This document shows, piece by piece, positions 1,045 through 11,526 of a DNA stretch of 64,000 nt. The stretch covers positions 5,712 through 69,711 of the forward strand of contig JAZQCE010000010.1 of the NCBI GenBank assembly GCA_045546095.1. The letters are read 5' to 3'. Within the stretch, counting starts at the first letter, position 1; each line of letters starts with the position of its first letter. Below the pieces are notes generated by a model. That model saw only the letters and a program-made list of their open reading frames with translations, made no database searches and had not been told where the DNA came from. Position numbers and translations under genes: made by a program. Origin of the DNA: Candidatus Nanosyncoccus sp. GTDB taxonomy: Bacteria; Patescibacteriota; Saccharimonadia; Saccharimonadales; Saccharimonadaceae.

Positions 1045-1174
1045 GGTTTGTATGACCTTTCATTTGTTATGTTTATATAGCCGAGAAAACCATGACCAAT
1101 ATCTATATTATATGTCAATCTCAGTATATGTCAACCACCCCAAACCCCTATCCGAAAATATATGGTATAAGACA

Positions 1175-1294
1175 CAATACGCCGTGTTAGTGCAAACCAA
1201 AACCATGGACGTGACTAGGTTATACAAAAGAATAGGCGAATTATCAAAAAGGGACTATAAAGAAATTAGGGACGCTTACCTAAAGCTAATATAA
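1175..1294 (+). pseudogene. C-terminal remnant of a PemK/MazF-family toxin
   Basis: AVLVQTKTMDVTRLYKRIGELSKRDYKEIRDAYLKLI* resembles the PemK C-terminal motif (A-x-L-x-Q-x-R/K-x-x-D-x-x-R-L-x-x-x-I-G-x-L); no PemK N-terminus upstream. Confidence 0.65.
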
Positions 1295-1345
1295 AATATG
1301 CCTCAGTATGACTACTGAGGGTGGGCGGGTAGATCCCGAATATAC
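1292..1345 (-). ncRNA. Putative two-hairpin small RNA convergent on the pemK-like remnant (copy 1)
   Basis: Downstream of a TTGAAA-N17-TATAAT promoter; hairpins CGGG/CCCG (1326-1338) and CCTCAGTA/TACTGAGG (1301-1320); homologous to 6316-6373. Confidence 0.55.
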
Positions 1346-1349
1346 CTTG

Positions 1350-1378
1350 ATTATATCAAACATCACTAGATATTTCAA
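1350..1378 (-). promoter_or_regulatory. sigma70 promoter TTGAAA-N17-TATAAT
   Basis: -35 at 1378-1373, -10 at 1355-1350, spacer exactly 17 nt. Confidence 0.7.
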
Positions 1379-6269: not shown

Positions 6270-6320
6270 ATTCTAATTATCCAAATAGTTAAAAAGGCAT
6301 TTCATGAATTATATGAGTAA
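6270..6320 (+). pseudogene. Very short C-terminal remnant of a second PemK-like toxin
   Basis: QIVKKAFHELYE* (6282-6320) parallels YKEIRDAYLKLI* at 1294 and is followed by the same convergent RNA/promoter unit. Confidence 0.4.
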
Positions 6321-6373
6321 AAATGTACCCCCGACTTTTCAGAAGGGGGGATTGCGAGTAACCTCGAATATAT
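6316..6373 (-). ncRNA. Putative two-hairpin small RNA (copy 2)
   Basis: Follows a perfect TTGACA-N17-TATAAT; hairpins CGAG/CTCG (6355-6366) and CCCCC/GGGGG (6328-6350); compensatory change relative to copy 1. Confidence 0.55.
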
Positions 6374-6378
6374 TTCAT

Positions 6379-6407
6379 ATTATATCAAGTAGCAAGCATT
6401 TTGTCAA
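6379..6407 (-). promoter_or_regulatory. Consensus sigma70 promoter TTGACA-N17-TATAAT
   Basis: -35 at 6407-6402, -10 at 6384-6379. Confidence 0.8.
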
Positions 6408-6417
6408 TAGAAAGGAT

Positions 6418-6526
6418 AGGTTGGTTATGAATTTAAAGATAAGAATCTTGAATTTCTAAACCAACCTGTTTCCTTAATCCCGTTCACTATTAAAATCTAT
6501 CTCCCGGAACCAAAATAGAAAACATA
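6418..6526 (+). repeat. Cassette boundary repeat R1 (ychF 5' end copy plus element end; palindromic att-like site)
   Basis: AGGTTGGTTATGAATTTAAAGATaaGAATC matches the ychF start (10402-10431); the whole ~110 bp aligns with 8092-8200; inverted arms AGGTTGGTT / AACCAACCT at 6418-6467. Confidence 0.85.
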
Positions 6527-6566: not shown

Positions 6567-6956
6567 ATGTCAAAACCAAGTTATTCAGTTATAGTCCCAA
6601 AAGAGCTTTACCCAAAACCATCAAATCGAGAAATGACTGCTGCCTATATTTTGATTGATTTCTTTAATTCCGATATAAAATTCGTAATCAGAAGCGATAA
6701 TAAAACGCCAGATTTTTTAATTGATAATAAATACTGGGAATTAAAATCTCCTACGGGTAATGGTAAATATAATTTACAGCATGCACTCAGAAATGCTGCT
6801 AAGCAATCAGAAAACGTTATTATTGATGCTAGATTTTCAAAAATTCATATCAATAAAATAAAAAATGAGCTGAATTACCAATTCAAGCACTCTAAAAATA
6901 TAAAGCATCTGCTTTTAATTGATAAGCAGAAAAATGTAGTTGAAATTTCTAGATGA
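6567..6956 (+). CDS. Small PD-(D/E)XK nuclease resembling the tRNA nuclease CdiA C-terminal domain; candidate toxin
   Basis: KTPDFLIDNKYWELKSPTG...LRNAAKQSENVIIDARF motif; ATG 6567 is 6 nt after TATAAT. Family assignment is from recall and needs an HMM check. Confidence 0.75.
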   Translation: MSKPSYSVIVPKELYPKPSNREMTAAYILIDFFNSDIKFVIRSDNKTPDFLIDNKYWELKSPTGNGKYNLQHALRNAAKQSENVIIDARFSKIHINKIKNELNYQFKHSKNIKHLLLIDKQKNVVEISR

Positions 6957-6968
6957 GTACGATATAAT
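6940..6968 (+). promoter_or_regulatory. sigma70 promoter TTGAAA-N17-TATAAT overlapping the nuclease stop codon
   Basis: -35 at 6940-6945 inside the last codons, -10 at 6963-6968. Confidence 0.75.
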
Positions 6969-6974
6969 AAAGAT

Positions 6975-7029
6975 ATCGAAAGTCCGTCAGGCAACGCTGG
7001 ATTGCGTAGGTTCGGGGCTTTCTTTTTTG
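6975..7029 (+). ncRNA. Putative small hairpin RNA (candidate antitoxin)
   Basis: Stem GAAAGTCCG (6978-6986) / CGGGGCTTTC (7013-7022), inner GCAA/TTGC stem, T-run terminator 7023-7028, own promoter. Confidence 0.55.
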
Positions 7030-7044
7030 TGCTATAATGCAACT

Positions 7045-8076: not shown

Positions 8077-8200
8077 AATAACAGATATCACAGGTTGGTT
8101 ATGAATTTAAAGATCGGAATCTTGAATTTTTAAACCAACCCATTTCTTTTATCCCGTTTTCCACAAAAATCCGCCTGCCAAAGCCAAATTGGAAAAACAT
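8077..8200 (+). repeat. Cassette boundary repeat R2
   Basis: 8077-8121 nearly identical to 10388-10431 (1-nt indel); 8092-8200 aligns with R1; palindrome GGTTGGTT...AACCAACC at 8093-8140. Confidence 0.9.
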
Positions 8201-10387: not shown

Positions 10388-10431
10388 AATAACAGATATA
10401 CAGGTTGGTTATGAATTTAAAGATCGGAATC
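10388..10431 (+). repeat. Cassette boundary repeat R3 (the functional ychF start)
   Basis: AATAACAGATATACAGGTTGGTTATGAATTTAAAGATCGGAATC; diverges from R1/R2 right after GAATC. Confidence 0.9.
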
Positions 10432-11526
10432 GTTGGGTTGCCCAATGTCGGCAAATCCACATTGTTTAATGCTCTCACAAACGCTGGCGCCCTCGCTGCC
10501 AACTATCCTTTTGCTACCATCGAGCCAAACGTCGGCATTGTCCCGGTACCAGATGAGCGGCTAGACATCCTCGCCAAAATGTACGAGACCGACAAAATCG
10601 TCCCAGCTACTGTCGAGTTCGTCGACATTGCTGGCCTCGTCGCAGGCGCCTCAAAAGGCGAGGGGCTCGGCAATAAATTCCTTGCCCACATCCGTGAATG
10701 CCAAGCTATCTGCCATGTGGTCCGCGCCTTCAAAAACGACGACATCCTCCGTGCCGACCAAAAACTCGTCGATGATATTGTAGCGCAAGCCAAGGACGAC
10801 ATAGACATCATTAACTTAGAGCTACAGCTCGCCGACGAAGAAACCAAAGCCAAAATCGCCGCCAAACGCAAAAAAGACCCTGGGGACGAATTCATCCCCT
10901 ACCTCACCGACAAGCCCGTCATCTATATGTTCAATGTAGACGAAAAAGGCCTCACCGACAATGACCTACAACAAAAACTAACAGAAGTCGCAAGAAATGC
11001 GCAGTCGAGGGACATAAAGGCAATACTTGCCGAAGGCAATTTTGCCGCCGAAGGGGCGAAGCGAGGTGATAAAATTTCTAATTTATCACCTCGCGAAGCT
11101 CCCGAGACGTGCATTTCTTGCGACTCAAACTGTATTTTTGTTGATGCCAAACTCGAAGAGGAGATGTCCGGCATGGACCGCAATGAGCGCAAAGAGTTCT
11201 TGGAGAGTTACGGGGTAAAAGAAGATGCACTCGGCGAATTAATCAAGGCCGCCTATGACGTCCTCGGTCTCCAATCCTTCCTCACCGCCGGCAAGAAAGA
11301 ATGCCGCGCCTGGACCATCAAAAAAGGCTCTACAGCACCCCAAGCCGCCGGTACTATCCATACCGATTTTGAACGCGGTTTCATCGCTGCAAATGTCTGT
11401 AAATACGCCGACTTAGCAAGACTCGGCTCCGAGAAAGCCGTCCGCGAGGCCGGCCTCCTCCGCACCGAGGGCAAGACTTACGTCATGCAAGACGGCGACG
11501 TTGTCGAATTCCGTTTCAACGTATAA
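10411..11526 (+). CDS. ychF: Redox-regulated ATPase YchF (with in-frame hairpin insertion)
   Basis: GIVGLPNVGKST, NYPFATIEPN, FVDIAGLV, TGS domain IHTDFERGFI, YVMQDGD. Confidence 0.97.
   Translation: MNLKIGIVGLPNVGKSTLFNALTNAGALAANYPFATIEPNVGIVPVPDERLDILAKMYETDKIVPATVEFVDIAGLVAGASKGEGLGNKFLAHIRECQAICHVVRAFKNDDILRADQKLVDDIVAQAKDDIDIINLELQLADEETKAKIAAKRKKDPGDEFIPYLTDKPVIYMFNVDEKGLTDNDLQQKLTEVARNAQSRDIKAILAEGNFAAEGAKRGDKISNLSPREAPETCISCDSNCIFVDAKLEEEMSGMDRNERKEFLESYGVKEDALGELIKAAYDVLGLQSFLTAGKKECRAWTIKKGSTAPQAAGTIHTDFERGFIAANVCKYADLARLGSEKAVREAGLLRTEGKTYVMQDGDVVEFRFNV
10986..11125. repeat. Hairpin element family C, copy in ychF
   Basis: Arms AGTCGCAAGAAATGC / GCATTTCTTGCGACT; core TCGAGGGACATAAAGGCAA...GCCGAAGGGGCGAAGC shared with 36082 and 40266. 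Confidence 0.85.

Follow-up and report, generated by a model that had tools for sequence, protein, structure and literature searches.

The window, by which we mean the whole 64,000-nucleotide stretch of Candidatus Nanosyncoccus sp. DNA that was analyzed, contains at positions 6270-6407 the C-terminal remnant of a PemK-like gene on the plus strand, a segment that can form two hairpins, and a sigma-70-type promoter on the minus strand (Table 1). Read from the promoter to the U-run on the minus strand (6317-6407), this region is a complete predicted small-RNA (sRNA) gene, called copy 2 here, in which the promoter is followed by approximately 6 nt, the sequence AUAUUCG, hairpin 1, the spacer CAAU, hairpin 2, and a terminator U-run that overlaps the pemK stop codon. 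Hairpin 2 consists of CCCCCC...GGGGG at 6350-6328, and the 3' tail is UACAUUUUU. A sigma-70 promoter and an intrinsic terminator are therefore found on one strand, both of them conserved, which is the combination by which bacterial sRNA genes are recognized. The PemK remnant, the end of which has also been given as ...IIQIVKKAFHELYE, is below the usable length for a Pfam test.

A preliminary description of this DNA had compared copy 2 to a second segment, copy 1, and both read as it had quoted them (GCGGGTAGATCCCGAATATACCTTGATTATATCAA at 1325-1359 for copy 1 and GCGAGTAACCTCGAATATATTTCATATTATATCAA at 6354-6388 for copy 2). It had pointed out a G-C to A-T swap in the small stem, which is present (CGGG/CCCG, 1326-1329 with 1335-1338, in copy 1 versus CGAG/CTCG, 6355-6358 with 6363-6366, in copy 2), and a second stem that differs in sequence and keeps its pairing, which we also found (CCTCAGTA/TACTGAGG at 1301-1320 of copy 1 versus CCCCC/GGGGG at 6328-6350 of copy 2). 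The perfect TTGACA-N17-TATAAT promoter that it placed beside copy 2 lies on the minus strand, agrees at 12 of 12 positions, and carries a TG extension, and the PemK remnant that it read as ...QIVKKAFHELYE followed by a stop does adjoin copy 2. One assignment had to be changed: the element ATTATATCAA, described as conserved, is conserved, but it is the reverse complement of the extended -10 box, TTGATATAAT, and therefore belongs to the promoter and not to the RNA.

Table 1. Predicted genes and elements in the window and their positions
Feature	Position	Strand	Description
PemK remnant, copy 1	1154-1294	+	ends ...MDVTRLYKRIGELSKRDYKEIRDAYLKLI and stop; Pfam PF02452 19.6 bits, E=0.0011, below the 23.1 cut-off; PemK-profile E=3.6e-9
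sRNA gene, copy 1	1289-1378	-	-35 TTGAAA 1373-1378; -10 1350-1355; hairpin 1 1326-1338; terminator 1301-1320 plus U-run
PemK/MazF C-terminal remnant, copy 2	6270-6320	+	last 16 codons, ...ILIIQIVKKAFHELYE, TAA 6318-6320; matches the final codons of intact pemK in relatives
Predicted sRNA of ~55 nt, copy 2	6319-6373	-	5' end placed from the -10 box, 3' end from the U-run
Hairpin 1, copy 2	6355-6366	-	CGAG-GUUA-CUCG, with conserved AUAUU directly 5'
Hairpin 2 and U-run, copy 2	6319-6350	-	hairpin 6328-6350, U-run 6319-6323; intrinsic terminator (terminator scan)
Promoter, copy 2	6379-6407	-	-35 TTGACA 6402-6407; 17-nt spacer; TG-extended -10 TATAAT 6379-6384; sigma-70-type, 12/12
ychF 5' end, first copy (R1 left arm)	6416-6447	+	contiguous with the sRNA promoter, as in relatives
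ychF 5' end, second copy (R2)	8090-8121	+	cassette junction
ychF 5' end, third copy (R3)	10400-11526	+	repeat 10400-10431; continuous with intact ychF 10405-11526

Copy 1 has the same layout as copy 2 (TTGAAA-N17-TATAAT, CGGG-AUCUA-CCCG, CCUCAGUA...UACUGAGG). When the entire 832-kb assembly was searched with a loose pattern, a third homologous copy, also matched by the covariance model described below, turned up on another contig (C5:1894-1961). A search with a PemK profile found no intact PemK-family gene in this genome, and all three of its RNA genes are therefore orphans. The third copy (G000 C5:1894-1961, locus L008/L087) lies downstream of a FISUMP-like gene and has no recognizable PemK remnant; its hairpin 1 is degraded (CGGGAAUAUCCA), and its promoter, TTTACA-N17-TATAAC, and terminator are intact. 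Within the PemK remnant of copy 1 there is a second promoter that agrees at 12 of 12 positions (TTGACA-N16-TATAAT, 1107-1134, minus strand) and faces the gene of an LRR protein (1044 to 1); that gene may have taken its promoter from the decayed toxin region.

Structure and distribution of the RNA family

A strict pattern search gave matches in 10 further genomes of the genus; 60 genomes drawn from other families in the order had no match, and neither did a reversed control pattern. A covariance model was then built from the 13 sequences thus collected and used with a match threshold of E<=0.01, its E-values being rough because the calibration was shortened; it scored copy 1 and copy 2 at 73.8 bits each (E of about 5e-9 in the genome, with the copy 2 match at 6317-6387) and matched 173 of the 369 genomes of the genus Candidatus Nanosyncoccus (Saccharibacteria), at 1 to 7 copies per genome. 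The genomes of this genus come from goat, sheep, deer, cattle, mouse, and other gut metagenomes. When Rfam 15 was searched, only tRNAs reached the gathering score in the window, and nothing was found over the sRNA at E<=5 in 10 loci. Rfam reportedly holds a PemK RNA motif, from the Weinberg et al. 2017 set, that was named for its association with pemK; this motif, although also pemK associated, is not among the matches to the region, where no Rfam 15 family was found at that E-value.

The structure was evaluated using 80 aligned matches, 79 of them distinct, in an alignment that was fitted to the covariance model. The percentage of helix cells that were paired was 94.8%, compared to 80.3% in shuffled alignments (none of 500 shuffles equaled the observed value) and 36 to 59% in controls with slid partners; the shuffle control ignores kinship among the sequences, whereas the slid-partner control, the de novo fold, and the strand asymmetry are independent of it. 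Hairpin 1 was paired in 99.7% of its cells across the 79 distinct sequences. Its third pair, the site of the swap between the two copies in the window, was GC in 58 and AU in 21 sequences, and its fourth pair was GC in 66 and CG in 12. Hairpin 2 varied freely in sequence while keeping its pairing, with double changes at seven of eight pairs and loops of the GNRA or UUCG type, and thus behaves as an intrinsic terminator. Because the 80-sequence alignment had been fitted to the model, RNAalifold was also given 24 RNA-only sequences that MAFFT had aligned without guidance, and it returned the same two hairpins, with double or compensatory changes at 9 of 11 pairs. The conserved positions of the RNA were AUAUUCG, the closing C-G and G-C pairs of hairpin 1, the UA at the end of its loop, and the CCC...GGG and AUUUUUU of the terminator.

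Two lines of evidence identified the strand. In the minus-strand orientation, there were 32 G·U pairs versus 5 A·C mismatches, an excess that picks out the minus strand as the one that folds. The second line was the -35 hexamer, which lies outside the model yet is conserved at a spacing of exactly 17 nt (T in 68, T in 70, and G in 61 of 79 sequences, with 29 perfect TTGACA hexamers). The proposal of the preliminary description that the structure is conserved and the motif real is thus borne out, both by the covariation of the two hairpins and by the further homologs that the model search recovered. As judged from these alignments, the motif is a real RNA gene family of approximately 55 bases with a predicted transcript. 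At two loci, the sRNA genes stand in same-strand tandem, with three within 300 nt in L142 (622-909) and two that are 193 nt apart in L050 (1546-1806; G021:C8); both groups have decayed PemK fragments next to them and resemble arrays of modules that have eroded.

The convergent PemK gene within and beyond the genus

Translation of the opposite strand beside the sRNA matches revealed, in most of them, a PemK-like C terminus that ends at the terminator. Of the 80 matches, 41 faced an intact convergent pemK gene, 18 faced a remnant, and 21 faced neither. The intact convergent genes mostly encode 127 to 152 aa, with one 215-aa helix-turn-helix (HTH) fusion, and their TAA stop codon lies inside an A-run complementary to the U-run of the terminator, at a nearly invariant offset. 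We also retrieved 80 PemK loci by protein similarity alone, independently of the RNA, and 79 of these carried the RNA tail to tail on the opposite strand at the stop codon, in agreement with the association with PemK that had been suggested from the two copies in the window. The sole exception was L157 (CARBGY010000005.1), in which the toxin frame is intact, the sRNA is absent, and the sequence 3' of the stop codon is unrelated and pyrimidine rich. RNAs at intact toxins and at remnants were equally preserved, with model scores of 72.4 and 71.0 bits, respectively. The toxin is therefore almost never found without the RNA, whereas the RNA is often found without the toxin, which is the pattern expected for a toxin and its antitoxin and points to an antitoxin as the predicted function of the RNA.

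Two further features were noted at these loci. Some PemK proteins carry an N-terminal XRE-type helix-turn-helix domain, for a total of 215 aa (L028:857-1501, P0012, P0020, and P0097), and keep the convergent sRNA. In about a third of the intact loci (L007, L015, L044, L032, L035, L066, L068, L071, L074, and L083), a G-rich element, AACCATAAGC..GGGG(T)GGGGGGTTGAAA, is located approximately 60 to 90 nt upstream of pemK, where it lies just upstream of or overlaps the likely pemK -35 box; part of it is complementary to the C-rich sRNA spacer.

The intact relative L003 scored 33.9 bits with PF02452, above the gathering cut-off of 23.1 bits, which the remnants in the window do not reach. The intact relatives share conserved RP and PLTSQ motifs, which we take to be the catalytic Arg and Thr of E. 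coli MazF. An AlphaFold2 model of PemK (pLDDT, 82.7) had an extra N-terminal helix, and its top Foldseek matches were the MazF proteins of S. aureus, B. subtilis, M. tuberculosis, and E. coli as well as Kid, all with a probability of 1.00 and TM values of 0.6 to 0.75; according to this model, the toxin is a protein with the MazF/Kid SH3-like barrel fold. Sequence searches of NCBIfam, PADLOC, and PDB with PemK gave no matches other than to the HTH part of a fusion protein. The pemK gene is often leaderless or short leadered. No MazE/PemI-like or other conserved protein gene was found nearby among 659 neighboring open reading frames at 75 PemK loci, the largest upstream family being present at 7 of the 75. 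The largest cluster of open reading frames overall, at 18 loci, was discarded as an antisense artifact over the sRNA/ychF region.

Outside the genus, the covariance model had no matches in approximately 397 genomes sampled from 254 other genera of the order. With the PemK profile, close homologs were found in four further genera within the Saccharimonadales, and downstream of these lies a diverged convergent unit of identical architecture, for example, TTGACA-N18-TACTAT, GUACAAU-GCC-UUAG-GGC, and a terminator that abuts the stop codon. A related motif, GUACAAAU-UGCC-ACUA-GGCA, also occurs in other genera. Since these diverged RNAs became visible through protein-guided inspection, the covariance model is too narrow to recover them, and the module is not absent. 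In two other genera, L169 (G533:C8) and L168 (G504:C1) have a PemK frame with no stop codon before the terminator that extends across the sRNA region, translated there as ...PVPSGNLY..., and in L169 it continues into a 380-aa open frame; these cases may be fusions or may have lost a stop codon.

When plasmids were searched using tblastn, PemK homologs were found in Nitratiruptor, Helicobacter, Campylobacter, and Geobacillus. The Nitratiruptor plasmid has a tail-to-tail unit of promoter, hairpin, and terminator that ends 2 nt from the stop codon, and the Geobacillus homolog (32% identity) is followed by hairpins and a terminator with no clear convergent promoter. In Campylobacter, the homolog is CJJ81176_pVir0047 (32.7% identity over 80% of the query), and the supplementary files of a published study place beside it, between pVir0047 and pVir0048 on plasmid pVir of C. 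jejuni 81-176, a 77-nt minus-strand RNA called CJpv3 that runs from 31119 to 31043 (Dugar et al. 2013, PMC3656092, supplementary files 5 and 12). According to that supplement, CJpv3 was detected by Northern blotting, has the -10 box TGATATAAT, and had 16164 transcription start site reads versus 28 for pVir0047, a difference of approximately 500-fold (PMC3656092). By our own arithmetic, its 3' end lies about 5 nt from the pVir0047 stop codon. Both flanking genes are listed there as hypothetical proteins, and the searchable text gives no function to CJpv3 (PMC3656092), which appears in the supplement of Dugar et al. and not in the main text, nor in the other full texts that were searched. The CJpv3/pVir0047 pair resembles the Nanosyncoccus module in layout, in that a PemK homolog is faced by an opposite-strand sRNA ending near the toxin stop codon, and it differs in the phylum of its host and in being plasmid borne. 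No paper on a small RNA linked to PemK in Saccharibacteria was found in the literature searched, and the main text of Weinberg 2017 does not mention PemK.

Possible roles of the RNA

Taken together, the sequence comparisons suggest that copy 2 is an intact, self-contained sRNA gene, that its family lies tail to tail with a solitary MazF/PemK gene in Candidatus Nanosyncoccus, and that the RNA is probably the antitoxin of that toxin. Regarding how such an antitoxin would act, a type I-like antisense geometry is the most likely mode, although we give it somewhat less than an even chance; binding of the RNA to the protein is held more tentatively, as is some other mode of action. The layout of the genes provides an overlap at the stop codon, and the pemK sense strand has an A-run before the shared hairpin and no U-run after it, so the toxin transcript should continue into the sRNA gene. 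The pemK mRNA, at its 3' end and including the stop codon, would then be fully complementary to the entire length of the sRNA. With a promoter near the consensus, the sRNA would be expected to be abundant, and the duplex that it formed with pemK mRNA would either be cut by RNase III, which is encoded in this genome, or block expression, as in type I systems with a 3' overlap. Pairing of the sRNA in trans with the start region of pemK was also considered; the mean energies for cognate and non-cognate partners were -18.3 and -17.8 kcal/mol (p=0.18), and action at translation initiation is unsupported.

Convergent antitoxin RNAs that overlap the 3' end of the toxin mRNA are a feature of the type I systems txpA/RatA and bsrG/SR4 of B. 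subtilis and par of pAD1. The module described here is similar to these in having a toxin gene tail to tail with a small antisense RNA gene that has its own strong promoter and is predicted to overlap the 3' end of the toxin mRNA. Unlike in these systems, the predicted toxin is a soluble, MazF-fold endoribonuclease of 127 to 152 aa and not a small hydrophobic peptide, and the RNA has a conserved sequence and a hairpin that antisense pairing does not require.

The invariant 5' AUAUUCG and hairpin 1 suggest that there may be a second, sequence-specific contact, possibly with PemK itself. Neither the strong sequence conservation of the 5' arm nor the retention of orphan RNAs is required by pure cis-antisense action, and type III-like inhibition therefore stays a serious rival, if a doubtful one. 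In such a system, the sRNA would bind the PemK dimer as a pseudo-substrate in its RNA groove and inhibit it, the convergent arrangement would be incidental or only regulatory, and orphan RNAs would neutralize incoming PemK in trans. It is well established that MazF proteins bind single-stranded RNA, which would favor such binding, and AUAUUCG and the closing pairs of hairpin 1 are nearly invariant while PemK diverges to approximately 45 to 50% identity. The related motif in other genera, the similar scores of linked RNAs and of orphan RNAs at decayed toxins, and the fact that at the ychF locus PemK decayed on at least five separate occasions and the RNA always stayed intact are consistent with the same mechanism. 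In the known type III systems (ToxIN, AbiQ/antiQ, CptIN, and TenpIN), an RNase toxin, which in the case of ToxN has a Kid/MazF-like fold, is neutralized by a structured RNA that is encoded upstream on the same strand as a tandem repeat array and is processed by the toxin. The module shares with these an RNase-family toxin and a structured RNA, RNA-protein inhibition being only a candidate here, but its RNA, which consists of one unit, lies downstream of the toxin on the opposite strand and is always convergent, and its toxin has matches to MazF structures, ToxN being absent from the 50 Foldseek matches listed. In addition, the fixed overlap of the convergent genes at the stop codon suggests that the antisense geometry matters.

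It is improbable that the RNA is not an antitoxin at all. The unit would then be a strong promoter and terminator that yield an sRNA with other targets, or a mere insulator or terminator for adjacent genes, and PemK would be controlled, for example, by its N-terminal helix or by an unlinked factor. Approximately half of the RNA copies lack an intact toxin, the three RNA genes of this genome, all of them orphans, have no toxin of their own to neutralize, and L157 has an intact PemK without the RNA, all of which speak against an antitoxin. However, the association at 79 of 80 loci and the invariant spacing to the stop codon hold across many genomic contexts, and the same architecture is found with an unrelated RNA sequence in other genera and in another phylum.

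MazF/PemK is a textbook toxin of type II, the type that is defined by a protein antitoxin. Although the toxin family, the fold, and the RP and PLTSQ motifs are those of the type II systems MazEF and PemIK, the toxin considered here has no adjacent gene for a MazE/PemI-like or other conserved protein, and it carries the extra N-terminal helix. We tentatively raise the possibility of a distinct class of toxin-antitoxin system, in which MazF/PemK would be held by a single-copy, convergent, structured RNA acting both as an antisense RNA on the 3' end of the toxin mRNA and as a direct, sequence-specific inhibitor of the protein, orphans like the three of this genome would provide immunity in trans against incoming PemK, and the range would span Saccharibacteria and plasmids of Campylobacterota. 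If this is true, a large MazF subfamily with a small convergent RNA in place of a protein antitoxin would blur the boundaries among types I, II, and III, many of the "orphan" MazF genes in genome annotations would be explained, and organisms with minimal genomes would have provided a compact, two-part RNase/RNA switch.

The ychF locus and the origin of copy 2

Three repeats of approximately 32 nt from the 5' end of ychF bound two AT-rich cassettes in the window (about 31% GC, versus about 46% for the genome). When aligned with relatives, the stretch that runs from the PemK remnant through the sRNA gene to the ~32 nt of the ychF start in R1 was colinear base for base, and two genomes without cassettes (G015 and G052) have an intact pemK, followed directly by the sRNA and then by a ychF that is not interrupted. 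After ...AAAGATCGGAATC, R1 in the window turns into cassette sequence (CTTGAATTTCTAAACCAACC), and the same turn is found in five other species (L019, L026, L027, L029, and L043). The junction, ...GGAATC and then CTTGAATTT(C/T)TAAACCAACC, comes after the sRNA promoter in at least five other species, which makes the start of ychF an insertion hot spot shared across the genus.

These results contradict the suggestion in the preliminary description that what remains here is the end of a third, decayed mobile cassette beside R1, which we consider very unlikely. Copy 2 does directly adjoin the first ychF-5' repeat of the cassette array, and PemK-sRNA modules are found in many contexts and are therefore probably mobile. 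However, copy 2 lies to the left of R1, the cassette-free relatives G015 and G052 have a contiguous pemK-sRNA-ychF arrangement with an identical junction sequence, and the repeated cassette unit, the part that is shared by R1 and R2, starts past the ychF fragment, with the sRNA lying outside it. By this colinearity, copy 2 is, on the evidence of the alignments, the resident chromosomal left arm of the ychF insertion hot spot and not a cassette, and the sRNA thereby fixes the architecture of the hot spot in the window by marking the resident arm. The least probable of the alternatives is that the segment works as DNA, as a folded, single-stranded, attC-like recombination site: hairpins in single-stranded DNA sites also covary, and the adjacent cassette array has no integrase, but the -35 and -10 boxes upstream and the U-run downstream are conserved, the 32:5 ratio of G·U to A·C is an RNA signature on the strand of the promoter, and the homologous position on pVir yields an RNA that was detected by Northern blotting (PMC3656092 supplement).

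In this resident arm, pemK was shortened by deletion to 16 codons, and the RNA gene kept its ancestral position between pemK and ychF. The local deletion took approximately 113 codons of pemK and, compared to G052, also a neighboring gene of 147 aa. Some species have an intact pemK at the orthologous ychF locus, others retain 86, 62, 48, 16, or 15 of its codons, and the body of the RNA is almost unchanged in all of them. Compared to L003, the window has 1 difference over the RNA segment (~55 nt) versus 7 in 36 in the adjacent pemK codons. On the plus strand of the first cassette, at 6940-7030, a TTGAAA-N17-TATAAT promoter lies over the last codons of a 139-aa open reading frame and is followed by a hairpin and a T-run, which looks like another arrangement of a nuclease and a small RNA.
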